From the IMG/VR virus record IMGVR_UViG_2690315992_000015, positions 1-13,859 of that record: DNA of 13,859 nucleotides; one strand, 5' to 3'. Every line of letters begins with the position of its first letter. Within the stretch, counting starts at the first letter, position 1. The translations under genes and the position numbers were made by a program. Positions 1 to 13,859 of this stretch are shown piece by piece. This stretch comes from a virus (Duplodnaviria; Heunggongvirae; Uroviricota; Caudoviricetes). Under the pieces are notes generated by a model. The model did no database searches and had not been told where the DNA came from. It saw nothing but the letters and a program-made list of their open reading frames with translations.

Positions 1-462
1 TTATTTCACTTCTTTAAAACCAGCGGCTTTCATCACCAGTTCCATTTGCGCCATAGTGATACCTTTTTTGGCATCTTCAGCAGAAACGTTGATTCCTGAA
101 ATACCCTGCAGGGCTTTAAAATCCACTTTTTCCATATCGATAGTCACGTTTTCCTGCGCGTAGGTATCTGTATAGGTTAATTTTTCTTCAACACCCGCGA
201 TGTTTTTGTATTTGGCGCTTAACGGCTCAAGTGTCTTGGCAGCGTCTTCTTTGGTGGTTGCACCAATAGAAGCAAATTGAATTTTGGTTTCAGAAGATTG
301 CTTAAGCACCTTGTCACCTTTGTAGACATAGGTAATGGCAATTTCAGTGCCGTTCAGATTGGCGCTGAATTTCTTCGATTCTTCTTTGTCACCGCAGCCA
401 GCAAGAGAGAAAACCAGAACAGATGCAACAACGAGGGAAAACAGCTTATTGAAAGCCTTCAT
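1..462 (-). CDS. yehR: DUF1307-family lipoprotein (YehR-like)
   Basis: Minus-strand ORF whose stop (TAA) is at 1-3. N-terminus MKAFNKLFSLVVASVLVFSLAGC has a hydrophobic signal peptide and a LAGC lipobox. GGAG lies about 8 nt upstream of the ATG at 460-462, so the track's 474 start (MEFYMKAF) is probably an over-extension. Identity as YehR is from recalled similarity. Confidence 0.8.
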   Translation of the reverse strand: MKAFNKLFSLVVASVLVFSLAGCGDKEESKKFSANLNGTEIAITYVYKGDKVLKQSSETKIQFASIGATTKEDAAKTLEPLSAKYKNIAGVEEKLTYTDTYAQENVTIDMEKVDFKALQGISGINVSAEDAKKGITMAQMELVMKAAGFKEVK

Positions 463-491
463 GTAAAACTCCATTTTATTTAATCAAGAAA

Positions 492-508
492 CTGGTGACT
501 CTCACCAG
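492..508 (-). other. intergenic stem-loop (7-bp stem ctggtga / tcaccag, 3-nt loop) between yehQ stop and yehR start; possible attenuator or RNA-stabilising hairpin
   Basis: Perfect inverted repeat read directly from the sequence; on the minus strand it is followed by the T-rich TTTCTTGATT. Function not established. Confidence 0.3.
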
Positions 509-586
509 GGGCTATATAGAATATGCCTAATACCGTGACGTGAGCAGTCCGGAACTGGAGTAGAACTCTTAGTAAAAAGCACTATT

Positions 587-2587
587 TCATCCTTGTTGCT
601 GAAGCATGGGGAATAATTGTTCGCAAAGTAAAACACCGTTATTCATTGCTTCTACCCGTGCCTCGCTTTCTGTATTACGAAATTGTCCCAACACATGTGC
701 CAGCCGATAAAAACCGACCGCGGAGAGGTCATTCGCCAGCAACTCTGCCTGACTAATAGCGCTCTGTTCCTGATAGCGCCAGCCGTTATGGAGCAGTTGA
801 ATAAGTAACGCCTGGCAGCGCATCAGCAACTGATGAGCGGTAGACGGCACAGGCAAAACGCTGGCAGAAGGTAGCGGTGCCACAGGCGCAGTTTCTGCGT
901 CCAGCGCCCAGGCGCGGGTTTTTGTCATCATCACCCGTGGTTCCAGTGTCAATTGCCCATCAACAAAACTGACAAAGCCAGAAACCAGACTCACGGGGTC
1001 GTCTGTTTGTTGCAAAAGCGCCGCCATGCGTTCAACGGCAAAAGGAGAACAGGCAGATGCCGGAAGGGATAACGTCAGGAGATTATCTTCACCTTCGCCG
1101 CTGATTACCTGCGCATCCAGCGTCTGGCGGCTGCTATCCCAACCGAGCGAAATACACTCAGCGACCGGCAGAATAAATAAGTTATCGACCTGATTAAGAG
1201 GCCGTATGCAGGCGGGGGGACGCTGGCGTAAATATTCCCGCAAAGCCACAATGCCCGGCTGGCGTAACGGCGCGCTCAACATTTGCCAGGCATCAGGCGA
1301 CAGCGGCACAACGCTGCTTAAGCGGTTGCGGGTAGCTAACAGCAGCTCGCCATCGGCACTGCGTTTTGCTGCTTGTGAAACAATTTGCCCACCCGCCAGT
1401 GCGCCAGCCTGAAAACTAAACAGCCGACGCGTAGCTGCCGGTGAGTTTTCCTGTTCACTTCGCGGCCAACTGCGCGAAAGGTGCAAAATACTGCCGGTGT
1501 CGGGATCGGTAAACCAGATGCGTAAACCATAATGCTCAATATCCTGCCAGCAACGCATACCTAAAGACACCAGCCGCAGATGATCAAGCTTTGCTTCTCC
1601 GGCAATGCCAGAGCCAACGACCGTGCGCCACGGCACAGGAGGAACTTCACCAACACTGTCGCGCCGGGCCATCTCTTGTGCGCAATTTAATCGACTGTTT
1701 AATGCCGCAAGCTGACGTAAGCATTCTCCGGCATGATAGTGGCTGGCGCGAGTGTGGAAGGCATCAACGCTTGCCCGTAGCTGTCGTAGTGATTCACTCA
1801 CCCAGCGCCAGTTGCAGGCCTCTGCCGCCTGCAATGCGCGGTTGAATGCTGCCTCGTAGTGAATAAGCGGCTGGCTGATGCCGCCAAGCCATAATGCCTG
1901 GCTTAATTGCTGAACATATTGACGACACGTTTGGCCTTCTTCGCTGGCAAACGGATCGTCAGATGATGTGACGTGTTCGCTGCGCATCTGCCAGATTAAA
2001 TGGTTAAATTCTGCTTGCTGCGCTTTGGCCTCGACGAAGGCCTGCACAGCCAGTACGACATGTTCGCAAAGTGTGCCTTCAATACAATCACAACGGGCGA
2101 AACGAATACTGCTACGGGAATAAAAACGCACATCGCTCATCGGTAAGCGGGCAGAGGGAATTTCGCCCGGCGCACAGAACAACTCAATGGTGATGCCTTT
2201 AGCGACCAGCGCCTGCGCGCGTTTGCGGGTGGCATCGGGCAGGGTAGCCAGTTCTTCCAGCCAGATTGCCGGATCCCACTCTTCTTCTTTTTCCGTGGGC
2301 TGGACGGTGGCACAAAGTCGTTGATAACTTAACACCAGCATCACGCGATGACGGCACATGCCGCTGGCCCCGCAGCTGCACTGAGCCTCTTTCAGTGCCT
2401 GGCTGTTCGCCAGCTGGGTACGGACACCGTCACTGAAGGTGGCGATTAAAGCGCCGTTCTCATGGCTGATTTCCGGGACGTTGCCATTTTCCAGTTCCTT
2501 AAGACTGCGCTTAACAAAACCGGCATTGCTTAACGCCGTCAGTGCCTGCGGTGTCAGTTCTAATAATTCCGGACGTAGTGAATTCAT
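587..2587 (-). CDS. yehQ: SWIM zinc-finger domain protein (YehQ-like)
   Basis: Long minus-strand ORF with two CxC...CxH motifs (CSCGASGMCRH and CDCIEGTLCEH). The track ORF runs through the N gap as X residues; the real start is most likely the ATG at 2585-2587 (MNSLRPELL), 5 nt from the gap. Upstream partner genes would lie beyond the gap. Confidence 0.8.
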   Translation of the reverse strand: MNSLRPELLELTPQALTALSNAGFVKRSLKELENGNVPEISHENGALIATFSDGVRTQLANSQALKEAQCSCGASGMCRHRVMLVLSYQRLCATVQPTEKEEEWDPAIWLEELATLPDATRKRAQALVAKGITIELFCAPGEIPSARLPMSDVRFYSRSSIRFARCDCIEGTLCEHVVLAVQAFVEAKAQQAEFNHLIWQMRSEHVTSSDDPFASEEGQTCRQYVQQLSQALWLGGISQPLIHYEAAFNRALQAAEACNWRWVSESLRQLRASVDAFHTRASHYHAGECLRQLAALNSRLNCAQEMARRDSVGEVPPVPWRTVVGSGIAGEAKLDHLRLVSLGMRCWQDIEHYGLRIWFTDPDTGSILHLSRSWPRSEQENSPAATRRLFSFQAGALAGGQIVSQAAKRSADGELLLATRNRLSSVVPLSPDAWQMLSAPLRQPGIVALREYLRQRPPACIRPLNQVDNLFILPVAECISLGWDSSRQTLDAQVISGEGEDNLLTLSLPASACSPFAVERMAALLQQTDDPVSLVSGFVSFVDGQLTLEPRVMMTKTRAWALDAETAPVAPLPSASVLPVPSTAHQLLMRCQALLIQLLHNGWRYQEQSAISQAELLANDLSAVGFYRLAHVLGQFRNTESEARVEAMNNGVLLCEQLFPMLQQQG

Positions 2588-2592
2588 GACTG

Positions 2593-2606
2593 NNNNNNNN
2601 NNNNNN
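2593..2606. other. assembly gap (14 N)
   Basis: Literal run of n in the sequence; flanking sequence on the two sides belongs to different gene contexts. Confidence 0.97.
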
Positions 2607-2623
2607 ATCAAAAACAGGTTTCA

Positions 2624-3121
2624 TTATTTAGCCCTCACCAGAAAGTTAAATGCAATATTTCGCGGTCTGACAGCAACAAAATTCACACCATCACCCACAG
2701 AGTTACTGGTGAAATTAAATCGTGAAAATCCTGGCTGATTTCCGGCGATGCCATCATGAAAGTTAATTGCGTGTCCCGCACCTCCGCCTATATTCCCGGC
2801 AAACTGAGAAAAGTTTGTAGCTTCCTGCCAGCTTAATAATTCGCGACCACCATCTGCACCTCGCCCGTCATCCCAGATACGAATGAAATCACCGCGGGCT
2901 TCAGGTAATACCAGCGAAGGAAATACTTTCGCCAGCACAGGATAATCAGTGGCAGAGAATTTCGCGCCGTTGAACTTCAAAAACACCATACTGGACCAGC
3001 TGTCGATTACAGTATTTGGCATTGCAGCGGACGGCCAGAAGAACGGAACGCCAATAGCTGGAGCACCTTCTCCCAAACCAACGTTTAAGAAAATGCAGAG
3101 GTACCAGCTAACTGGCATCAT
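2624..3121 (-). CDS. phage tail-fibre variable C-terminal cassette (tail-collar-like domain), silent orientation of an invertible segment
   Basis: Gly/Asn-rich minus-strand ORF with the motif YPVLAKVFPSLVLPEARGDFIRIWDDGRG typical of the tail-collar region in Mu S / e14 StfP-type fibre tips. It begins next to the crossover site adjacent to the invertase gene and is closed upstream by a stop at 3131-3133, so it is not expressed as a full fibre in this orientation. The functional fusion point would be the crossover site, not the track's ATG. Confidence 0.55.
   Translation of the reverse strand: MMPVSWYLCIFLNVGLGEGAPAIGVPFFWPSAAMPNTVIDSWSSMVFLKFNGAKFSATDYPVLAKVFPSLVLPEARGDFIRIWDDGRGADGGRELLSWQEATNFSQFAGNIGGGAGHAINFHDGIAGNQPGFSRFNFTSNSVGDGVNFVAVRPRNIAFNFLVRAK
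3068..3093. other. hix/gix-like 26-bp invertase crossover site
   Basis: TTCTCCCAAACC-AA-CGTTTAAGAAAA: imperfect 12-bp inverted half-sites around a 2-bp core, fitting the recalled consensus TTnTCnnAAACC-nn-GGTTTnnGAnAA (compare hixL TTCTTGAAAACCAAGGTTTTTGATAA). It sits about 55 bp upstream of the invertase start, inside the 5' end of the fibre cassette. Confidence 0.55.
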
Positions 3122-3148
3122 CTCCGGTTTTTATTCAGGGGGATGATC

Positions 3149-3715
3149 ATGCTTATTGGCTATGTACGCGTGTCAACAAATGACCAGAACACCGATTTGC
3201 AACGTAATGCACTGAACTGCGCGGGATGTGAGCGGATTTTTGAGGACAAAATCAGTGGCACTAAGTCCGACAGACCGGGGCTGAAAAAACTACTCAGGAC
3301 ACTATCGGCAGGAGACACGCTGGTTGTCTGGAAGCTGGACAGGTTGGGGCGCAGTATGCGGCATCTTGTTACGCTGATAGAAGAGTTGCGCCAGCGTGGT
3401 GTGAATTTCAGAAGCCTGACTGACAGTATTGATACCAGTACCCCAATGGGCCGTTTCTTTTTTCATGTCATGGGTGCCCTGGCTGAAATGGAACGCGAAC
3501 TGATAGTTGAACGTACCAGGGCAGGGCTGGCTGCAGCTCGTGCCAAAGGCAGAGTAGGTGGACGCCGTCCTAAGTTGACCACCGAACAGTGGGCACAGAT
3601 TGGGCGTTTACTCGAGGCCGGAGAATCAATACAGCGTATTGCACTGATTTTTGATGTAGGCGTTTCTACCATTTATAGAAAATTTCCGGCAAATAAGATC
3701 AATGAATCCCCCTGA
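3149..3715 (+). CDS. pin: site-specific DNA invertase, serine recombinase (Pin/Gin/Cin/Hin family)
   Basis: N-terminus MLIGYVRVSTNDQNTDLQRNAL with the catalytic Ser in RVSTNDQ and a C-terminal HTH (VSTIYRKF); near-identical in pattern to e14 Pin as recalled. AGGGGG at 3137-3142 favours the ATG at 3149 over the track's 3143. Confidence 0.92.
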   Translation: MLIGYVRVSTNDQNTDLQRNALNCAGCERIFEDKISGTKSDRPGLKKLLRTLSAGDTLVVWKLDRLGRSMRHLVTLIEELRQRGVNFRSLTDSIDTSTPMGRFFFHVMGALAEMERELIVERTRAGLAAARAKGRVGGRRPKLTTEQWAQIGRLLEAGESIQRIALIFDVGVSTIYRKFPANKINESP

Positions 3716-3762
3716 ATCAGCATTATGTTGATTATCCCTGCAAGCAGACAAATACCGTTATT

Positions 3763-3780
3763 TTGTGTGAATAACGACAC
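3763..3780 (+). promoter_or_regulatory. candidate Ogr/Delta-dependent late promoter element (TGT-N12-ACA) for the FI operon
   Basis: TGTgtgaataacgacACA lies 78-95 bp upstream of the FI start codon. P2/P4 late promoters carry a TGT-N12-ACA dyad centred near -55 (established knowledge). A single motif occurrence; the transcription start is not verified. Confidence 0.45.
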
Positions 3781-3857
3781 AACTGCGCTTAGCTGTTTGT
3801 CAGGCACAATCACTTCAACATAGGGCGAAGCCTAATCCAATCAGGAGGTTCGCCACT

Positions 3858-5030
3858 ATGGCTCAGGATTACCACCACGGGGTGCGCGTTGTTGAAGTCA
3901 ACGAAGGCACCCGATCTATTACCACGGTGAGCACCGCCATCGTGGGTATGGTCTGCACGGGCGATGATGCCGATGCAAAAATGTTTCCTCTTAATAAACC
4001 CGTGCTGATCACTGATGTGCTGACTGCCAGCGGTAAAGCGGGTGAGTCAGGTACTCTGGCCCGTTCGCTGGATGCCATCGCTGACCAGGCAAAACCCGTG
4101 ACCATTGTTGTGCGTGTGCCGCAGGGTGAAACGGAAGACGAAACCACGACCAATATCATCGGCGCAGTGACTGCTGAAGGTAAAAAAACAGGTATGAAAG
4201 CCCTGTTATCTGCCCAGTCACAGCTCGGCGTTAAACCGCGCATTCTCGGCGTGCCAGGCCACGACACCAAGGCGGTAGCTACTGAGTTGCTGAGCGTGGC
4301 GCAACGCCTGCGTGGATTTGCTTACCTGTCAGCGTATGGCTGCAAGACAGTGCAGGAGGCGATCACTTACCGCGAAAACTTCAGCCAGCGCGAAGGGATG
4401 CTGATCTGGCCTGACTTTACTGGTTGGGACACGGTGCTGAATGCCGAAGCAACGGCATATGCCACCGCCCGTGCGCTTGGTCTGCGCGCCAAAATTGACG
4501 AGCAGACCGGATGGCACAAAAGCCTGTCCAACGTGGGCGTGAACGGTGTCACCGGAATTTCTGCAGATGTGTTCTGGGATCTGCAGGACCCGGCAACCGA
4601 TGCAGGTCTGCTGAACCAGAACGACGTCACCACGCTTGTGCGTAAAGACGGTTTCCGCTTCTGGGGTTCCCGCTGCCTGAGTGATGACCCGCTCTTTGCC
4701 TTCGAAAACTACACCCGCACGGCGCAGGTGCTGATGGACACGATGGCAGAAGCACACATGTGGGCGGTGGATAAACCGCTTAACCCGTCGCTGGCCCGCG
4801 ACATTATCGAAGGTATCCGCGCCAAAATGCGCAGCCTGGTCAGTCAGGGCTATCTCATTGGTGGTGATTGCTGGCTGGATGAGTCGGTGAACGACAAAGA
4901 CACGCTGAAAGCCGGAAAACTCACCATCGACTACGACTACACGCCAGTGCCGCCACTTGAAAACCTGATGCTGCGTCAGCGCATCACCGATCAGTACCTG
5001 GTGAATTTCGCCAGCCAGGTCAGCGCGTAA
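3858..5030 (+). CDS. FI: contractile tail sheath protein (P2 gpFI-like)
   Basis: 390-aa ORF with a strong AGGAGG RBS, in the conserved position at the head of the FI-FII-E-T-U-D operon; length and sequence are typical of the P2 sheath protein. Confidence 0.9.
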
Positions 5031-5039
5031 GGGGACAAC

Positions 5040-5555
5040 ATGGCATTACCACGCAAATTAAAACACCTGAACCTGTTTAACGACGGGAACAACTGGCAGG
5101 GGATCGTTGAGTCGCTGACGCTGCCGAAATTTACCCGCAAATATGAGAAGTATCGCGGCGGCGGAATGCCGGGTGCGGTGGATGTGGATCTGGGGCTTGA
5201 TGACAGTGCGCTGGACACAGAATTTTCCATTGGTGGTACTGAATTGCTGCTGTTTAAACAGATGGGTAAAGCCACGGTGGATGGCATCCAGCTGCGCTTT
5301 ACCGGCTCTATTCAGCGTGACGATACCGGGGAAGTGCAGGCCGTGGAGCTTGTCGTGCGTGGACGTCACAAAGAAGTGGATTCCGGCGAGTGGAAGACGG
5401 GCGAAAGCAACACCACCAAAGTGACCAGTACCAACAGCTACGCGAAGCTGACCATCAATGGTGAGGTGCTCTATGAAGTGGACCTTATCAACATGGTGGA
5501 AATTGTGGACGGTGTGGACCTGATGGAAGCGCACCGCAACGCCCTCGGCCTCTGA
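5040..5555 (+). CDS. FII: tail tube protein (P2 gpFII-like)
   Basis: 171-aa ORF 9 bp downstream of FI with an AGGGGA RBS; size and position match the P2 tube protein. Confidence 0.9.
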   Translation: MALPRKLKHLNLFNDGNNWQGIVESLTLPKFTRKYEKYRGGGMPGAVDVDLGLDDSALDTEFSIGGTELLLFKQMGKATVDGIQLRFTGSIQRDDTGEVQAVELVVRGRHKEVDSGEWKTGESNTTKVTSTNSYAKLTINGEVLYEVDLINMVEIVDGVDLMEAHRNALGL

Positions 5556-5566
5556 TATATCTGAAC

Positions 5567-5584
5567 GGCGCGGGATACCGCGCC
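5567..5584 (+). other. GC-rich hairpin (GGCGCGG-gata-CCGCGCC) between FII and E
   Basis: Perfect 7-bp GC stem read from the sequence; no U-tract follows, so it is more likely a partial attenuator or mRNA-stability element than a full terminator. Confidence 0.3.
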
Positions 5585-5609
5585 AGAACCCAATTGACAG
5601 GACAGCAAA

Positions 5610-5912
5610 ATGAGCGATAAGCAGACTGAAAAGACCATTCAACTGGATACCCCCATCAAGCGCGGTAAAACAGAAATCACCGAAATTGTGCTGCGTAAAC
5701 CGCAGTCCGGTGCGCTGCGCGGTACACGCCTGCAGGCCATTATGGATATGGATGTAAACGCGATGATGACCGTGATCCCCCGCATCTCCAGTCCGGCACT
5801 GACTGCACAGGAAATTGCAGAGATGGACCCGGCAGATCTCACTGCCATGTCGGTTGAGGTTGTCACTTTTTTGTTGAAGAAGTCGGTGCTTGCCGGTTTA
5901 CCGACAGCCTGA
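5610..5912 (+). CDS. E: tail assembly chaperone (P2 gpE-like)
   Basis: 100-aa ORF between the tube and tape-measure genes; the N-terminal pattern (LDTPIKRGKTEITEIVLRKP...GALRG) resembles P2 gpE; contains the slippery heptamer near its 3' end. Confidence 0.85.
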   Translation: MSDKQTEKTIQLDTPIKRGKTEITEIVLRKPQSGALRGTRLQAIMDMDVNAMMTVIPRISSPALTAQEIAEMDPADLTAMSVEVVTFLLKKSVLAGLPTA

Positions 5913-6046
5913 CGGTTGACGATCTGGTGGCAGATATCGCCACCATTTTTCACTGGCCGCCATCCGTTACTGACGTTATGCCGCTGACCGAAGTGCTGGA
6001 ATGGCGGTATAAAGCGATTCAGAGAAGCGGGGCCAACGATGAGTGA
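5610..6046 (+). CDS. E': E+E' fusion made by programmed -1 frameshift at T_TTT_TTG (5867-5873)
   Basis: The canonical P2 slippery heptamer is in the zero frame at 5867-5873. The -1 frame is open from 5873 to a TGA at 6044-6046 (VEEVGACRFTDSLTVDDLVADIATIFHWPPSVTDVMPLTEVLEWRYKAIQRSGANDE) and overlaps the T start, as in P2. Confidence 0.65.
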
Positions 6047-7553
6047 TAACAACCTGCGTCTGCAGGTCATTCTTAATGCGGTTGACAAGCTCACCCGTCC
6101 ATTTCGATCTGCGCAGGCCAGTTCAAGAGAACTGGCTGCTGCTGTCAAAAAATCCCGCGATGCAATAAAGCAGCTTGATCAGGCCGGGAGCAGTCTGGAC
6201 AGCTTCCGAAAGCTGCAGGCAGAAAATCAGAAATTAGGCGACAGGCTGAACTATGCCCGCCAGCGTGCAAATTTGCTCAGTCAGGAACTGGGAGCGATGG
6301 GGCCGCCTTCGCAACGTCAGGTTGTTGCTCTGGGCCGTCAACGGCTGGCTGTTCAGCGCCTGGAAGAACGCCAGAAAAAGCTGCAGCAGCAGACGGCGCT
6401 TGTGCGTGCTGAACTGTACCGGGCGGGAATTTCTGCGAAAGACGATGCGGGAGCAACTGCCCGTTTAGCCCGTGAAACATCACGTTATAACCAGGAACTT
6501 TCGAAACAGGAGGCGCGGCTGAAGCGACTGGGGGAAGCTCAGCGCAGGATGAATGCAGCGCGTGCCAGTTATGCCCGTTCGCTGGAGGTGCGTGATCGTA
6601 TTGCAGGTGCCGGAGCCACCACCACGGCTGCAGGGCTGGCAATGGGTGCGCCAGTGATGGCGGCAGTAAAAAGCTATACCAGCATGGAAGATGCCATGAA
6701 AGGTGTGGCAAAGCAGGTCAATGGTCTGCGTGACGATAATGGCAACCGCACTGCACGTTTTTATGAAATGCAGGATGCCATCAAGGCTGCCAGCGAACAG
6801 TTGCCGATGGAAAACGGTGCGGTGGACTTCGCTGCACTGGTTGAAGGTGGTGCGCGCATGAACGTCGCAAACCCTGACGACAGCTGGGAAGATCAGAAAC
6901 GTGACCTGCTGGCCTTCGCCAGTACGGCAGCAAAGGCGGCAACAGCCTTTGAGCTGCCAGCGGATGAACTGTCAGAAAGTCTGGGGAAAATCGCCCAGCT
7001 CTACAAAATCCCCACCCGCAATATTGAACAGCTCGGTGATGCGCTGAACTATCTGGATGATAACGCCATGTCGAAAGGGGCAGACATCATTGATGTGATG
7101 CAACGTCTGGGCGGTGTGGCTGACCGTCTGGATTATCGTAAAGCGGCGGCGCTGGGTTCCACCTTCCTGACACTGGGCGCTGCGCCAGAGGTTGCAGCCA
7201 GTGCAGCAAACGCGATGGTGCGTGAATTGTCCATTGCCACCATGCAAAGCAAGAGTTTCTTTGAAGGGATGAATCTGCTGAAACTCAATCCTGAAGTGAT
7301 TGAAAAGCAGATGACGAAGGATGCGATGGGAACCATCCAGCGCGTGCTGGAGAAGGTAAACGCGCTGCCGCAGGACAAGCGCCTGTCTGCCATGACTATG
7401 TTGTTTGGTAAAGAGTTTGGCGATGACGCGGCGAAACTGGCAAACAACCTGCCGGAACTGCAGCGTCAGTTAAAACTGACAGCGGGCAATGATGCGCTCG
7501 GCTCCATGCAGAAAGAATCCGACATTAACAAGGATTCACTTTCTGCGCAGTGA
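6039..7553 (+). CDS. T: tail tape measure protein, N-terminal 504 codons (P2 gpT-like), ends at an in-frame TGA
   Basis: Coiled-coil-rich, Ala/Gln/Arg/Leu-rich N-terminus typical of tape measure proteins, in the correct operon position. The TGA at 7551-7553 is followed in the same frame by the next ORF. Confidence 0.8.
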   Translation: MSDNNLRLQVILNAVDKLTRPFRSAQASSRELAAAVKKSRDAIKQLDQAGSSLDSFRKLQAENQKLGDRLNYARQRANLLSQELGAMGPPSQRQVVALGRQRLAVQRLEERQKKLQQQTALVRAELYRAGISAKDDAGATARLARETSRYNQELSKQEARLKRLGEAQRRMNAARASYARSLEVRDRIAGAGATTTAAGLAMGAPVMAAVKSYTSMEDAMKGVAKQVNGLRDDNGNRTARFYEMQDAIKAASEQLPMENGAVDFAALVEGGARMNVANPDDSWEDQKRDLLAFASTAAKAATAFELPADELSESLGKIAQLYKIPTRNIEQLGDALNYLDDNAMSKGADIIDVMQRLGGVADRLDYRKAAALGSTFLTLGAAPEVAASAANAMVRELSIATMQSKSFFEGMNLLKLNPEVIEKQMTKDAMGTIQRVLEKVNALPQDKRLSAMTMLFGKEFGDDAAKLANNLPELQRQLKLTAGNDALGSMQKESDINKDSLSAQ

Positions 7554-9116
7554 TTGCTGGTCAAAACCGGAGCGCAGAACACCTTCAGCAGCCTGGGCGA
7601 AACGCTGCGCCAGCCGCTGATGGATATTCTGTACACGGTGAAAAGCGTCACGGGGGCGTTGCGTCGCTGGGTGGAAGCTAACCCGGAACTGACAGGCACA
7701 CTGATGAAAGCATCGGCTGTTGTGGCTGCGGTTACCGTCGGCCTCGGCACCTTAGCGGTGGCGCTGGCTGCAGTGCTGGGGCCGCTGGCAGTGATCCGTC
7801 TGGGATTCTCTGTGTTGGGTATCAAAACGTTATCTTCCGTTACGGCAGCAGTAACTCGAACCAGCAGCGCGTTGTCCTGGCTGGCTGGCGCACCACTGGC
7901 ACTGCTGCGACGCGGGCTTGCTTCATCGGGCAACGCCGCAGGTTTACTTACTGCGCCGTTGTCGTCTTTGCGCCGCACGGCATCACTGACGGGAAATGTC
8001 CTGAAAACTGTAGCAGGTGCGCCGGTTGCACTTTTGCGGTCTGGATTATCCGGTTTACGTGCGGTTGCTGTGATGTTTATGAATCCACTGGCAGCACTAC
8101 GCGGCGGGCTGGCTGCCGCAGGCACGGTGCTGCGAGTACTGGCATCTGGTCCACTGGCGATGTTGCGCGTTGCCCTGTATGCCGTATCTGGTCTGTTAGG
8201 TGCTCTGCTCAGTCCGATAGGTCTTGTGGTTACTGCACTGGCGGGTGTGGCACTGGTTGTCTGGAAATACTGGCAACCCATCACCGCATTTCTCGGTGGC
8301 GTGGTGGAAGGATTCAAAGCGGCGGCAGGTCCCATCAGTGCAGCGTTCGAACCGCTTAAGCCTGTGTTCCAGTGGATTGGTGACAAAGTGCAGGCGCTGT
8401 GGGGCTGGTTTACTGATCTGCTGACGCCCGTTAAGTCGACTTCTGCCGAACTGCAGAGCGCAGCGGCAATGGGGCGACGATTCGGGGAGGCACTGGCGGA
8501 AGGGCTGAATATGGTTATGCATCCGCTGGACTCCCTGAAATCTGGCGTTTCCTGGTTGCTGGATAAACTCGGCATTGTCAGTAAAGAGGCTGCAAAGGCG
8601 AAACTGCCGGAAAGCGTGACGCGTCAGCAACCTGCGACGGTGAATGCAGACGGTAAAGTGATGATGCCATCGGGTGGTTTTCCGTCATGGGGATATGGCT
8701 TTGCGGGGATGTATGACAGCGGCGGCTATATCCCGCGCGGGCAGTTTGGCATCGTCGGTGAAAACGGGCCGGAAATTGTTAACGGCCCGGCAAATGTGAC
8801 CAGCCGGAGAAATACAGCTGCACTGGCTGCCGTTGTTGCCGGAATGATGGGCGTTGCTGCCGCGCCTGCAGAGCTTCCACCGTTGCACCCTTTGGCACTT
8901 CCCGCGAAAGGCGGCGAAGCGATGGTGAGTCGTGCAGCCACTGTGCCGCCCGTTCAACGGATTGAGGCACCGATGCAGATCATCATTCAGACGCAGCCAG
9001 GACAAAGTGCGCAGGATATTGCGCGGGAGGTGGCCCGCCAGCTTGATGAACGTGAACGTAGGCTGAAGGCAAAAGCCAGGAGTAACTACAGCGATCAGGG
9101 GGGATACGACGCATGA
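7554..9116 (+). CDS. T: tail tape measure protein, C-terminal 520 codons (same frame as 6039-7553)
   Basis: Same reading frame as the upstream segment (6039 and 7554 are both multiples of 3). Contains the hydrophobic repeat region and C-terminal part of a tape measure protein; the stop overlaps the U start (ATGA). The two segments together give about 1025 codons, a plausible size for a P2-family tape measure protein. Confidence 0.75.
   Translation: MLVKTGAQNTFSSLGETLRQPLMDILYTVKSVTGALRRWVEANPELTGTLMKASAVVAAVTVGLGTLAVALAAVLGPLAVIRLGFSVLGIKTLSSVTAAVTRTSSALSWLAGAPLALLRRGLASSGNAAGLLTAPLSSLRRTASLTGNVLKTVAGAPVALLRSGLSGLRAVAVMFMNPLAALRGGLAAAGTVLRVLASGPLAMLRVALYAVSGLLGALLSPIGLVVTALAGVALVVWKYWQPITAFLGGVVEGFKAAAGPISAAFEPLKPVFQWIGDKVQALWGWFTDLLTPVKSTSAELQSAAAMGRRFGEALAEGLNMVMHPLDSLKSGVSWLLDKLGIVSKEAAKAKLPESVTRQQPATVNADGKVMMPSGGFPSWGYGFAGMYDSGGYIPRGQFGIVGENGPEIVNGPANVTSRRNTAALAAVVAGMMGVAAAPAELPPLHPLALPAKGGEAMVSRAATVPPVQRIEAPMQIIIQTQPGQSAQDIAREVARQLDERERRLKAKARSNYSDQGGYDA
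7779..8177 (+). repeat. degenerate tandem repeats (about 66 bp / 22 aa period) inside the tape measure gene
   Basis: Recurring peptide motif GPLAVIRLGF / APLALLRRGL / APLSSLRRTA / APVALLRSGL / NPLAALRGGL / GPLAMLRVAL at roughly 22-aa spacing; the corresponding DNA motif CCACTGGC...CTGCG..G recurs. Confidence 0.5.
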
Positions 9117-9598
9117 TGATGGTGCTGGGATTGTACGTGTTTATGCTGCGCACCGTGCCGTATCAGGAGCTGCAGTATCAACGCAGCTGGCGACATGCGG
9201 CAAACAGCCGGGTAAACCGACGTCCGTCCACGCAGTTTCTGGGACCGGACAACGACATGCTGACGCTTTCCGGTGTTCTTATGCCGGAGATAACAGGTGG
9301 CAGGCTGTCGTTGCTGGCACTGGAGCAGATGGCAGAACAGGGGAAAGCATGGCCCCTGATTGAAGGCAGCGGCACGATTTATGGCATGTATGTGATTGAG
9401 GGACTGAATCAGACTAAAACGGAGTTTTTCCGCGACGGTATGCCGCGCCGGATTGAGTTCACCCTGTCGCTCAAACGGGTGGATGAATCCCTGTCCGATA
9501 TGTTCGGTGATCTCAGTGCGCAACTGAATAATCTGCAGGAAACGGCAACGTCTGCCTTAAGCGATATCAGTAAAACGGTGGGAGGGCTGCTGTCGTGA
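9113..9598 (+). CDS. U: tail protein (P2 gpU-like)
   Basis: 161-aa ORF with a GGGGGGA RBS; start overlaps the T stop. Motifs QFLGPDNDMLTLSGVL and WPLIEGSGTIYGMYVIEGL match the recalled P2 gpU pattern. Confidence 0.88.
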   Translation: MMMVLGLYVFMLRTVPYQELQYQRSWRHAANSRVNRRPSTQFLGPDNDMLTLSGVLMPEITGGRLSLLALEQMAEQGKAWPLIEGSGTIYGMYVIEGLNQTKTEFFRDGMPRRIEFTLSLKRVDESLSDMFGDLSAQLNNLQETATSALSDISKTVGGLLS

Positions 9599-10695
9599 AT
9601 TTCAGCTCTGAACTGCTTAACAAAAGCAACAAAACTCCGGCATTCAGCATCAGTATTGAGGGTAGGGATATCACCACTGTGCTGGATAACCGCCTGATGA
9701 GTCTGACTCTGACGGACAATCGGGGCTTTGAAGCAGACCAGCTTGATCTGGAGCTGGACGATGCCGACGGGAAAATCGTGCTGCCGCGCCGTGGTGCGGT
9801 CATTACGCTGGCGCTGGGCTGGAAGGGGCAGCCGCTTTTCCCGAAAGGGGCATTCACGGTGGACGAGATTGAACACACTGGCGCACCGGACCGCCTGACT
9901 ATCCGGGCGCGAAGTGCTGATTTTCGGGAAACGCTGAATACCCGCCGTGAAAAATCGTGGCACAAGACCACCATTGGGGAAGTGGTGAAGGAGATAGCCG
10001 CGCGGCACAAGCTGAAGATGGTACTGGGTAAAGACCTGTCGGATAAGCTCGTGGAGCATATAGACCAGACTAATGAGAGTGACGGTAGTTTTCTGATGCG
10101 GCTGGCGCGACAGTACGGTGCCATCGCGTCGGTGAAAAATGGCAATCTGTTATTCATCCGGCAGGGGCAGGGCAAAAGCGCCACTGGTAAACCACTGCCA
10201 GTGATCACTATCACACGCAAGGACGGCGACAGTCACCGCTTTACCCTGGCAGATCGCGGAGCCTACACGGGCGTAATTGCCAGCTGGTTGCATACCCGCG
10301 AACCTGCGAAGAAAGAAAGCACCACGGTGAAGCGTAAGCGCAGAACTAAGAAGCAGAAGAAAGAGCCGGAAGCGAAGCAGGGCGATTACCTGGTGGGTAC
10401 GGATGAAAACGTGCTGGTACTTAATCGCACTTATGCCAACCGGAGCAACGCTGAACGGGCAGCGAAAATGCAGTGGGAACGCCTGCAACGCGGCGTTGCG
10501 TCATTCTCGCTACAACTGGCGGAAGGGCGGGCAGATCTTTACACGGAAATGCCAGTGAAAGTTAGTGGCTTTAAACAACCGATAGATGATGCGGAATGGA
10601 CCATTACGACTCTGACGCATACCGTCAGCCCCGATAACGGTTTTACAACCAGTCTGGAGCTTGAAGTGAGGATTGATGATTTCGAAATGGAATGA
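9595..10695 (+). CDS. D: tail protein D (P2 gpD-like)
   Basis: 366-aa ORF with a GTG start overlapping the U stop (GTGA); last gene of the tail operon before ogr, as in P2. Confidence 0.88.
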   Translation: MNFSSELLNKSNKTPAFSISIEGRDITTVLDNRLMSLTLTDNRGFEADQLDLELDDADGKIVLPRRGAVITLALGWKGQPLFPKGAFTVDEIEHTGAPDRLTIRARSADFRETLNTRREKSWHKTTIGEVVKEIAARHKLKMVLGKDLSDKLVEHIDQTNESDGSFLMRLARQYGAIASVKNGNLLFIRQGQGKSATGKPLPVITITRKDGDSHRFTLADRGAYTGVIASWLHTREPAKKESTTVKRKRRTKKQKKEPEAKQGDYLVGTDENVLVLNRTYANRSNAERAAKMQWERLQRGVASFSLQLAEGRADLYTEMPVKVSGFKQPIDDAEWTITTLTHTVSPDNGFTTSLELEVRIDDFEME

Positions 10696-10785
10696 TTCTT
10701 CGCAATGGAGAACTTTTAAGTTTGCAAAATGGAATAATGCGGTATCATTATTGTGAATTTAGCAAAAATGGGGAGAACTCGAAAA

Positions 10786-11004
10786 ATGATGATTTGCCCA
10801 CTGTGTGGAAGTGCCGCCCATACTCGCAGCAGTTTTCAGGTATCTTCATTGACCAAAGAGCGTTACAACCAGTGCCAGAATATTAACTGCAGCCATACTT
10901 TTGTAACCCATGAAACTTTTGTTCGTTCGATTGCAACGCCAAAAGAGTCAAATCCGGTTCAGCCGCATCCAATGAAATCAGGACAGGTGGCGCTCTCTCT
11001 TTGA
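10786..11004 (+). CDS. ogr: Ogr/Delta-family zinc-finger late transcription activator
   Basis: 72-aa product MMICPLCGSAAHTRSS...CQNINCSHTF with the C-x2-C...C-x4-C arrangement of P2 Ogr. GGGGAGA lies 9 nt upstream of the ATG at 10786; the track's 10753 start is probably an over-extension. Confidence 0.9.
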   Translation: MMICPLCGSAAHTRSSFQVSSLTKERYNQCQNINCSHTFVTHETFVRSIATPKESNPVQPHPMKSGQVALSL

Positions 11005-11084
11005 CGCTGCCGCCATTTTGTCGCCATCGTTAAAAAACAGTGCTTCTAACGTCATGATTTTAAACGGCATAAATTTCAGGCAAC

Positions 11085-11127
11085 AAAAAACCCATCAACC
11101 TTGAACCGAAATGGCGGGGTTGATGGG
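11085..11127 (-). terminator. rho-independent terminator of ybjL
   Basis: Stem CCCATCAACC / GGTTGATGGG (10 bp), followed on the minus strand by a TTTTTT run (plus-strand AAAAAA at 11085-11090); lies 110-150 bp downstream of the ybjL stop. Confidence 0.55.
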
Positions 11128-11239
11128 CTCCACAAAATGGGGACATCAAAGAAAAGCAGTGGCACTAATTAAGACTGATGCCCTGCGGAAAAGTTCTGCG
11201 GTTGTGCAAAAAAATTTCATTTTCAGGGCAACTTCAGTT

Positions 11240-12925
11240 TTATCCTAATCCTGGCCATACCATGACGATGATTGTCCCTGCCAGCGTCAGCAGGACGTTG
11301 GCGATTGCGTAGGTGCCCGCATAGCCCAGCGCAGGGATGTTACTGCGAGCTGTATCACTGATGATCTCCATTGCCGGCGCGCAGGTGCGTGCGCCCATCA
11401 TTGCGCCGAACAACAGTGCGCGGTTCATTCGCAATACATAAGCACCGAACAAGAAACAGATAACCACGGGCACAAGACTGACAATTAATCCGGCAATCAA
11501 CATCTGACCGCCAATCGCGCCCAGGCCGTTATTAATACCGCTACCGGCGCTCAGACCAACGCCTGCCATAAACACCATCAAGCCGAACTCTTTCACCATG
11601 CTTAATGCACCTTGCGGAATGTAACCGAAGGTCGGGTGGTTAGCACGCATAAAGCCCAGCATAATTCCGGCGAATAACAACCCGGCAGCGTTCCCCATGC
11701 CGAAACTGAATGTGCTGAACTGGAAGGTGATCATCCCGATCATCAGCCCAATAACAAAGAAGGCGCAGAATGCCAGCAGGTCAGTGACCTGGCTGTGAAT
11801 CGAGATAAAGCCGATGCGATCGGCGATGGTTTTTACGCGGCGGGCATCGCCGCTGACTTGTAAAACGTCACCTTTGTTAAGCACGACGTTGTCATCTATC
11901 GGCATCTCAATCTGGCTACGAATGACGCGGTTAAGGAAGCAACCGTGATCGGTCAACTTCAGTTGTGCGAGACGTTTACCTACAGCGTTATGGTTTTTAA
12001 CGACCACTTCTTCAGTGACGATACGCATGTCGAGAAGGTCACGATCGAAAACTTCTTTACCGTTACGGAAGCTGGGATCGAGTCGGGCATGGGCGTCGGG
12101 ATAGCCTACCAACGCTATTTCATCGCCCATTTGTAGCACGGCATCACCGTCTGGATTTGCCAGAATCCCGTTACGTCGAATACGTTCAATGTAGCAGCCG
12201 GTTTGTCGATAAATACCCAGTTCACGCAGATTTTTGCCGTCGGTCCAGGCCACCAGCTCCGGGCCGACGCGATAGGCGCGGATCACCGGTAAATAAACCT
12301 TACGGTTGGCATCAGTGTCCAGGCCACGTTCGCGGGCGATTTGCTGGGCGCTGGTCTGTAAGTCCTGATGCTGCAATTTCGGCAAGTAACGCGCACCAAC
12401 AATCAAACTCACCAGACCGATTAAATAGGTTAAGGCATACCCGAGGCTCAGATTATCCAGTGCCAGTGAGAGCTGCCTGCTTTCCATGCCGAAATGACGC
12501 AGTGTATCGCCAGCACCGACCAGCACCGGTGTCGACGTCATAGAGCCTGCTAACATACCGGCCGTCAGGCCAATATCCCAGCCAAACAGCTTACCTAACC
12601 CTAAGGCGATCACCAGCGCACTGCCAACCATCACCAGTGCTAACATTAGGTAATTTTTCCCATCGCGAAAAAAAATGGAAAAAAAGTTCGGTCCGGCTTC
12701 GACCCCGACGCAGAAAATAAACAGCATAAAGCCAAGATTAAGCGCATCGGTGTTAATGCTGAAATGTTGTTGGCCTAATAACAGCGATACGACTAAAACG
12801 CCAATGGAATTACCCAGTTGGATCGAACCAAGTCGTAACTTTCCGAGACATAGCCCAAGCGCGAGGACCACAAATAATAACAGAATGTAATTCCCATTTA
12901 ACAATTCGGCGACGTTTATATTCAC
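11240..12925 (-). CDS. ybjL: AAE-family putative transporter YbjL (two transmembrane domains flanking TrkA-C-type cytoplasmic domains)
   Basis: 561-aa minus-strand ORF recognised as E. coli YbjL by sequence and by the flanking ybjM and grxA. GTG start at 12923-12925. Confidence 0.93.
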
Positions 12926-13194
12926 GGAGGCTAACTTCTTGTTTACTAGTAAGCTGTTGAAAGAAATGGTAATTTACGATAATGTTTTTTACCAGGATTC
13001 AGGGCGCAGATTCATTCAGCGCACCTAAACGATAGTAAAGTAACAATATATTTTACTAGTGTAATCACATTAGGTATCAACGGCTATATGAATTGCGTTG
13101 GCCTATATTAGCATGGAATGCGAAGCGGCTTTATCTTACTGAACGCCACACTGGCGAAAAATGTGTTCGATAGACGCAGTGTCAGGAGGAACGA

Positions 13195-13572
13195 GTGAAA
13201 CATAAACAACGTTGGGCGGGGGCAATCTGCTGTTTTGTCCTCTTCATTGTGGTGTGCCTTTTTCTGGCGACGCACATGAAAGGCGCTTTTCGGGCTGCCG
13301 GGCATCCTGAAATCGGCTTGCTATTTTTCATTCTTCCTGGAGCAGTTGCCAGTTTCTTTTCACAGCGTAGAGAAGTCCTGAAACCTCTATTTGGCGCAAT
13401 GCTGGCGGCACCCTGTTCAATGCTCATTATGCGGCTGTTTTTTTCACCGACGCGCTCATTCTGGCAAGAGCTGGCATGGTTACTAAGCGCGGTGTTCTGG
13501 TGTGCGCTGGGGGCACTGTGTTTCTTATTTATCAGTAGTTTGTTTAAACCACAGCACAGAAAAAATCAGTAA
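13195..13572 (+). CDS. ybjM: inner-membrane protein YbjM
   Basis: 125-aa hydrophobic ORF with a GTG start preceded by AGGAGG (13184-13189); conserved neighbour between ybjL and grxA. Confidence 0.85.
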   Translation: MKHKQRWAGAICCFVLFIVVCLFLATHMKGAFRAAGHPEIGLLFFILPGAVASFFSQRREVLKPLFGAMLAAPCSMLIMRLFFSPTRSFWQELAWLLSAVFWCALGALCFLFISSLFKPQHRKNQ

Positions 13573-13591
13573 AGCCCTCAACGCGAGGGCT
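13573..13591 (-). terminator. stem-loop between convergent ybjM and grxA (AGCCCTC-aacgc-GAGGGCT); likely grxA terminator
   Basis: Perfect 7-bp stem; on the minus strand it is followed by the T-rich TTTACTGATTTTTT. Confidence 0.45.
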
Positions 13592-13601
13592 TGTCAGACG
13601 A

Positions 13602-13859
13602 TCAGGCGTCCAGATTTTCTTTCACCCATGCAGCAAAATCGGTATAGCCGCCGATATGTTGCTGATCGACAAAAATCTGCGGCACGGTTTCTACGGGTTT
13701 ACCTGCCTTTTGTTGTAGATCTTCTTTAGTGATCCCTTCCGCACGAATATCTACATACTGATACTGAAAATCATCGCGTTCATTGCTCAATTTCTCAGCC
13801 AGATCTTTTGCACGCACACAGTAAGGGCAACCCGAACGACCAAAAATAACGGTTTGCAT
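13602..13859 (-). CDS. grxA: glutaredoxin 1
   Basis: 85-aa product with the CPYC active site (MQTVIFGRSGCPYCVRAKDLAEKL...), recognised as E. coli GrxA. The start codon is the last three bases of the window, so the promoter is outside it. Confidence 0.95.
   Translation of the reverse strand: MQTVIFGRSGCPYCVRAKDLAEKLSNERDDFQYQYVDIRAEGITKEDLQQKAGKPVETVPQIFVDQQHIGGYTDFAAWVKENLDA

Follow-up and report, generated by a model that had tools for sequence, protein, structure and literature searches.

The interval between ogr and ybjL very probably carries the attR of a P2-family prophage integrated at the 3' end of the rybB small-RNA gene

We analysed a 13,859-nt stretch of a tailed-phage record (IMG/VR IMGVR_UViG_2690315992_000015, positions 1 to 13,859), hereafter the window, whose right-hand part passes from phage into host DNA. 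The phage genes end, ahead of the attachment site, with ogr (10786-11004, plus strand), a late-gene activator of 72 aa matched by Pfam PF04606 (Ogr_Delta, E 5e-22) and labelled 'ogr/Delta-like zinc finger family protein' by RefSeq on an identical stretch. The first host protein gene to the right is ybjL (11240-12925, minus strand), which encodes a 561-aa member of the aspartate:alanine antiporter family, assigned from Pfam (Asp-Al_Ex and TrkA_C) and from the RefSeq annotation of identical sequence. The two genes leave an interval of 235 bp (11005-11239), and coordinates and Pfam matches agree here with the first-pass annotation of this DNA, which had ogr end at 11004 and a 235-bp spacer at 11005-11239 next to ybjL. 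The P2-family prophage portion of the junction contig (2607-11081, plus strand), recognized through Pfam matches (sheath, tube, GpU, GPD, resolvase), contains the start of a tail-fibre assembly gene, a partial alternative tail-fibre segment, an invertase gene, FI, FII, E/E', T, U, D, ogr and the P arm of the attachment site. Over 3069-13859 the window is 99.8% identical to the corresponding stretch of the lysogen 13E0767, rising to 100% across the junction, and the tail module is about 96% identical to that of Klebsiella phage 4LV2017 and relatives.

The window is non-contiguous, being interrupted by 14 Ns at 2593-2606. Left of this N-run (1-2592) lie yehR (1-474, minus strand), yehQ and the end of yehP; the yehQ frame (SWIM protein, minus strand) was called through the Ns as 587-2611, with a probable ATG at 2585-2587. 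Many E. coli strains have this yeh segment, at 100% identity, in their normal yeh locus; it is unrelated to the junction region, and its placement beside the prophage was produced by scaffolding or concatenation and is no biological adjacency. A full-window search found the 13.9-kb window in one piece in none of the complete E. coli genomes; we attribute this to the N-run and the unrelated yeh segment, and rejected a rearrangement as the cause. Neither rcdA nor an integrase gene occurs in the window (tblastn, no match better than E 0.2). The first-pass annotation had stressed that rcdA is missing from at least 8 kb, which is true but carries less weight than it seemed to, given that the contig starts at 2607 and that the sequence left of the N-run is unrelated yehR/yehQ DNA. 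Because the junction contig starts only after the N-run, we infer the left two-thirds of this prophage, with attL, the integrase gene (int) and rcdA, from relatives.

The junction contig begins 18 nt into the tail-fibre assembly gene (reverse complement ATGAAACCTGTTTTTGAT), a position that led us to reject the contig break as an invertase crossover site. A promoterless alternative tail-fibre C-terminal segment (2624-3121, minus strand) follows, and then a Hin/Gin/Cin-type serine invertase gene (3143-3715); an invertible host-range segment (2607-3715) is probably what broke the assembly. The arrangement of this region varies among relatives, with 13E0767 matching from 3069 only and WS3294A from 2607.

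The interval between ogr and ybjL had been treated as an anonymous spacer, a description that does not hold: it contains rybB, whose 3' end appears as the integration target. An Rfam scan of 10900-11300 returned RybB (RF00110) on the minus strand at 11082-11160, over the full covariance model (1-79 of 79) and with 105.3 bits against a gathering score of 40 (E 5e-23). We place the gene at 11082-11163 (minus strand), its extra 5' nucleotides GCC, up to 11163, being set from what we take to be the published RybB 5' end. Both its context, the interval between rcdA (ybjK) and ybjL, and its sequence are unchanged, as 11082-11239 matches the empty site of PD007, a K-12-like strain, at 100% identity; there the equivalent stretch lies between rcdA and ybjL and begins 17 bp past the rcdA stop codon. 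RefSeq feature tables for this region (loci L001, L002, L020 and L021) list no rybB despite the 105-bit match, and the small RNA is easily overlooked from annotation alone. The same Rfam scan gave a CyVA-1 match at 11018-11086, which we dismissed as chance (16.9 bits against a gathering score of 41.4, E 0.5).

The RybB intrinsic terminator is predicted at 11082-11127 (minus strand) as a 12-bp stem followed by a U-tract at 11082-11090, from RNA folding, an inverted repeat (I2) and the Rfam structure line. The arms of the hairpin core (11091-11100 and 11118-11127) are 100% complementary and are followed on the minus strand by UUUUUUGUU; the minus-strand fold has -24.1 kcal/mol (z -2.5). This hairpin had previously been read as the terminator of ybjL, yet the full-length RybB match identifies it as that of rybB and not primarily ybjL's. 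A consensus promoter and terminator scan of 10700-11400 reported no terminator, missing the RybB hairpin because its loop exceeds the 8 nt that the scan allows. Transcripts reading through from ybjL may end at the RybB hairpin too, because the same scan found no consensus terminator between the ybjL stop codon and rybB; the top of the RybB stem (11127) lies 113 nt downstream of that stop codon. On the other side of the gene, a probable sigma-E-type rybB promoter was recognized by eye at 11170-11196 (minus strand), with -35 GAACTT (11196-11191), a 16-nt spacer and -10 TCTTA (11174-11170), an arrangement that in our judgement resembles the sigma-E consensus. All of this promoter is host sequence, and the empty site has it in identical form.

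Comparison with complete genomes locates the host breakpoint. A megablast search of 5,426 complete E. coli genomes with 10700-11500 as the query recovered the whole junction, ogr included, in 1,115 of them, whereas nearly all others matched only from query base 370, or window position 11069, rightwards. Empty rcdA-ybjL sites resemble the window from 11069 and match it perfectly from 11082. Host similarity that begins only at 11069 agrees with the earlier proposal of a right prophage-host junction, attR, in the stretch from ogr to the hairpin. These counts also bear on whether the adjacency of ogr and ybjL could be an assembly artefact, a concern raised by the artificial join that the window does contain, where 14 Ns separate yehQ/yehP from phage DNA. 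Such an artefact is scarcely credible at the junction, however, since 10700-11500 occurs in one piece in the 1,115 complete genomes, with 100% identity in 13E0767, and has the exact structure expected for an attR.

Three- and four-way alignments of attR, attL, attB and attP, together with the alignment to empty sites from 11069, define an imperfect common core of 27 bp at 11069-11095. The core reads ATAAATTTCAGGCAACAAAAAACCCAT in attP and attR and ATAA(A/G)TTTTAGATAACAAAAAACCCAT in E. coli attB; 24 of its 27 bases match attB, the three mismatches falling in the first 13 positions and the last 14 being perfect. The perfect block, AACAAAAAACCCAT (11082-11095), is a direct repeat of both prophage ends. 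While the window holds a single copy, the 44-kb 13E0767 locus holds exactly two, 33,808 bp apart and at the two ends of the element; the block is likewise found at both ends in the lysogens CPEC80 and LD91-1, and nowhere else in the three loci. By our own arithmetic a given 14-mer is expected about 3e-4 times in 44 kb, and chance is therefore excluded. Immediately left of the block, all three independent lysogens carry host-type TTTTAGAT at attL and phage-type TTTCAGGC at attR; judged from this switch, strand exchange must take place right of 11081 and no further than 11095, that is, within 11082-11095. The first-pass annotation had confined the boundary to 11005-11090, which is right as to the interval, but the shared core extends to 11095, 5 nt beyond that upper bound. 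The check it proposed, in which the empty-site breakpoint is followed by a search for the direct repeat at the other end, proved productive, yielding a clean 14-bp core that recurs at the far ends of relatives.

The other end of the element can be followed in complete lysogens. In 13E0767 the order is ybjL, ogr, tail genes, head and replication genes, CI, integrase and rcdA, the element measuring 33.8 kb. Next to attL, about 100 bp from rcdA, stands an integrase gene whose 350-aa product matches Int_N (E 3e-32) and Phage_integrase (E 7e-22). The rcdA-attL-int junction is present in 961 genomes, and in non-lysogens similarity to the attL query ends exactly at the last base of the 14-mer. In the genome from which the window derives, attL would be expected to read AACAAAAAACCCATTTATGTAAAYGGGTTA, between the 3' end of rcdA and the integrase gene. 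Some lysogens, such as E. coli LD91-1 (L021, 1027-1296), have an additional gene, annotated as hypothetical and about 270 nt long, that separates the attL core from int and lengthens the P' arm by about 350 bp.

A synthetic attB, put together from the rcdA half of attL and the ybjL half of attR, is covered by 4,227 of the 5,426 complete E. coli genomes (78%), marking an uninterrupted rcdA-rybB-ybjL site. By this reconstruction the element is a conservative insertion, made without host loss or gain, because the two host sides rebuild real empty sites (strains E2865 and 06_3044) at 100% identity over 514 nt. The earlier suggestion of an element inserted between rcdA and ybjL is borne out by complete lysogens that keep rcdA intact just past the integrase gene. 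Its companion suggestion, that the rcdA-side flank was replaced or deleted in a non-conservative insertion, had the missing rcdA as its sole point in favour, a point that loses its weight once the left part of the window is recognized as an unrelated contig. Given that rcdA lies intact directly past int in every complete lysogen inspected, and that the rebuilt sites are identical to natural ones, replacement is refuted for the relatives and highly improbable for the window.

A phage attachment site of 710 nt, reconstructed as ogr, P arm, core, P' arm and int, is contiguous in Klebsiella phage KP12 (OM835953), where it lies between ogr and the integrase gene (100% coverage, 97.2% identity). That record (OM835953.1, 'Klebsiella phage KP12 clone KP12_3'), a 34.8-kb 'partial sequence', has a taxonomy line giving Vequintavirinae, yet it holds P2-type D, ogr and integrase genes, which suggests that the genome of a temperate P2-family phage was co-assembled and then deposited under the name of a lytic one. 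Furthermore, the attachment features deposited for Klebsiella phage 4LV2017, attL GCAGGCAACAAAAAACCCAT and attR CAGGCAACAAAAAACCCAT, share their final base with the 14-bp block (...AAAAAACCCAT).

Repeats in the P arm are in keeping with integrase-mediated recombination. Directly after ogr, at 11008-11029 (plus strand), stand two tandem 11-bp direct repeats, TGCCGCCATTT and TGTCGCCATCG, at 11-nt spacing, which are putative arm-type integrase-binding sites; the P' arm, on the int side of attL and attP, has two more copies (TGTCGCCACTT, twice) in the same orientation. All fit the 186-type arm consensus tgccGCCActt, as described by Nilsson and colleagues, who give tgTGGaCa as the P2 arm type (PMC3448106). 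A pattern scan further picked out a weak IHF-like site, AATCATGACGTTA, at 11047-11059 (minus strand), with one mismatch to WATCAANNNNTTR; this low-confidence candidate is a consensus match only, and a perfect IHF consensus match was found in the P' arm, outside the window. Binding of integrase at the arm repeats, and of IHF, would follow from these motifs by analogy.

We also asked how complete the element is. A 17-kb remnant of the same prophage occupies the same site in E. coli CPEC80 (L020, 23259-40248), with both att cores intact, the D and terminase genes truncated and fused, and the whole morphogenesis region deleted; it keeps P-loop NTPase and HsdR-like cargo genes. In the window, the tape-measure gene T (6039-9116, plus strand) has an in-frame TGA at 7551-7553 in place of the TGG of 13E0767, a G to A change at 7553 that cuts the 1,025-aa product at codon 505; either the prophage is defective or this base is a sequencing error. 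A genuine attR that belongs to a decaying or truncated remnant, and not to a complete excisable prophage, is therefore a reading to be weighed, and besides the nonsense codon it can draw on the contig break at 2607, with nothing visible left of the tail-fibre region, on the existence of remnants such as that of CPEC80 at the rybB site, and on an excess of about 150 genomes with this attR (1,115) over those with this attL (961). Yet apart from the nonsense codon, which splits a 3,078-nt frame in two and could itself be an error, the tail genes and ogr are long open reading frames with full-length Pfam matches, and over 3100-13859 the contig differs from the complete prophage at only 23 positions. 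Moreover, a break at the start of the tail-fibre assembly gene, at an invertible region, is typical of short-read assembly and not of a deletion. We regard a remnant as unlikely, though it is an outcome to be reckoned with.

We are nearly certain that a P2-family (Peduoviridae) prophage has its attR core at 11069-11095, and that a tyrosine integrase inserted this prophage, by site-specific recombination, at the 3' end of rybB, the gene between rcdA and ybjL. The prophage would carry 186/Fels-2-type regulatory genes and a 186-type integrase, and its target would be a sigma-E-dependent small-RNA gene. The phage attP, lying between ogr and int with tandem arm-type repeats on both arms, would carry in its core a duplicate of the 14 nt that end rybB, on the plus strand AACAAAAAACCCAT. 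In the gene's own direction these 14 nt read AUGGGUUUUUUGUU, of which the block is the reverse complement, and they make up the U-tract of the terminator together with the last five bases of its stem. Strand exchange inside the identity block would then produce attR and attL. At attR, the end seen in the window, the order would be ogr, P arm, core and the remaining part of rybB; since attP carries a copy of the rybB 3' end, the gene is thereby regenerated intact, and with its own promoter, body, hairpin and U-tract retained the RNA should be unchanged. At attL, outside the window, rcdA would be followed by the host side of the core, the core itself and then a phage hairpin, CCCATTTA-TG-TAAATGGG, which with the same U-tract could form an intrinsic terminator behind int. 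In the orientation of int the hairpin reads AACCCAUUUACAUAAAUGGGUUUUUUGUU, and it folds, as does the RybB terminator. The relationships among attR, attL, attB and attP, the identity of RybB and the population frequencies are direct observations; the exact cleavage positions, the binding of integrase and IHF, and terminator function are deduced from them and from motif likeness, and should be read as predictions.

That the prophage acts on the sigma-E/RybB envelope-stress circuit, and is not neutral to it, is a speculation to which we give very little credence. The ogr gene and the late tail operon (plus strand) aim at rybB, and on the plus strand the RybB hairpin has no U-tract after it; therefore phage transcription during induction, or leaky expression of ogr, could conceivably run antisense through rybB into ybjL. 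Phage DNA that replaces the sequence just downstream of the RybB U-tract might also alter termination efficiency.

The locus is an ordinary, already documented attR of a P2-family prophage, and rybB was already known as an integration site. For example, P2-like prophages of E. coli W, B and Crooks have been recorded with 'rybB ncRNA' as their place of insertion (PMC3032704), and the PhiECO1 integration-site class comprises E. coli HS, ATCC 8739, CFT073 and S. Typhi CT18 (PMC3448106). A Klebsiella prophage or island lies 'precisely within' RybB (PMC4048246), and the prophage NC-MV was placed between ybjL and rcdA (PMC12803456). In the Phollow preprint, the prophage of E. coli HS was deleted from rcdA to 77 bp downstream of ogr, and the reconstituted attB was used for re-lysogenisation; 77 bp past ogr corresponds in the window to 11081/11082, the start of the identity block. 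Beyond correct annotation the importance of the locus is low, rybB being a published P2-family hotspot that is occupied in about one-fifth of complete E. coli genomes. What the analysis does add is that the supposed spacer holds a small-RNA gene missed by automated annotation and by the first-pass annotation alike, that the tail of the RybB terminator serves as the att core, RybB therefore being left intact by lysogeny, and that the longer attP identity found outside E. coli hints at where the att module is best adapted.

The closest parallels are the P2-like (Felsduovirus) prophages of the rybB site, namely PhiECO1 (E. coli HS), PhiECO2 (ATCC 8739), PhiECO3 (CFT073) and PhiSEN1 (S. Typhi CT18), with Rybb*W, Rybb*B, Rybb*Cr, defence hotspot #29 and NC-MV of NC101 as further examples. 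They share with the window the same site (rcdA/ybjK-ybjL, in rybB) and the same order (ogr at one end, int at the other), and complete relatives have 186-type CI/CII/Fil regulatory genes and arm repeats. The window copy shows no substantive difference from them, setting aside its T nonsense codon and the fact that only the right third of the prophage is on the contig. We considered the W-phi site as an alternative assignment and rejected it, as W-phi, P2, 186 and PhiECO1 are separate classes in the published scheme (PMC3448106) and this locus falls into that of PhiECO1.

Outside E. coli, Klebsiella phages 4LV2017 (Peduoviridae, Elveevirus) and KP12 and the island Kpn38RybB have the same ogr-attP-int module and the same RybB target. 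A 30-mer specific to attL and attP occurs in 13 other Enterobacteriaceae species representatives, belonging to Klebsiella, Raoultella, Citrobacter, Leclercia, Silvania, Scandinavium and cryptic Escherichia, and in 9 of the 13 an rcdA homologue lies upstream in the locus. In most of those species (attL loci L013, L019 and L007-L018; L005, 620-641) the host flank before the 14-mer reads TTTCAGGC, as attP does, giving 19-27 bp of identity in Klebsiella and most other genera, whereas the three mismatches of E. coli attB (TTTTAGAT) leave a perfect block of only 14 bp. By this measure of sequence fit, the att module is better matched to the sites of Klebsiella, Citrobacter and cryptic Escherichia than to that of E. 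coli.

The same logic, in which the attP copy restores the interrupted gene, applies to 186, Fels-2/SopEPhi and many phages that integrate into the 3' ends of tRNA or tmRNA genes. Here, in contrast, the target is an Hfq-dependent regulatory small RNA, and the duplicated part is limited to the terminator U-tract and five stem bases. In phage P2, whose core is 27 bp, attP likewise lies between ogr and int, with a comparable core length and only partial identity to attB. The core sequence, the arm-repeat type (PMC3448106) and the chromosomal site of P2, however, are all different from those described here.
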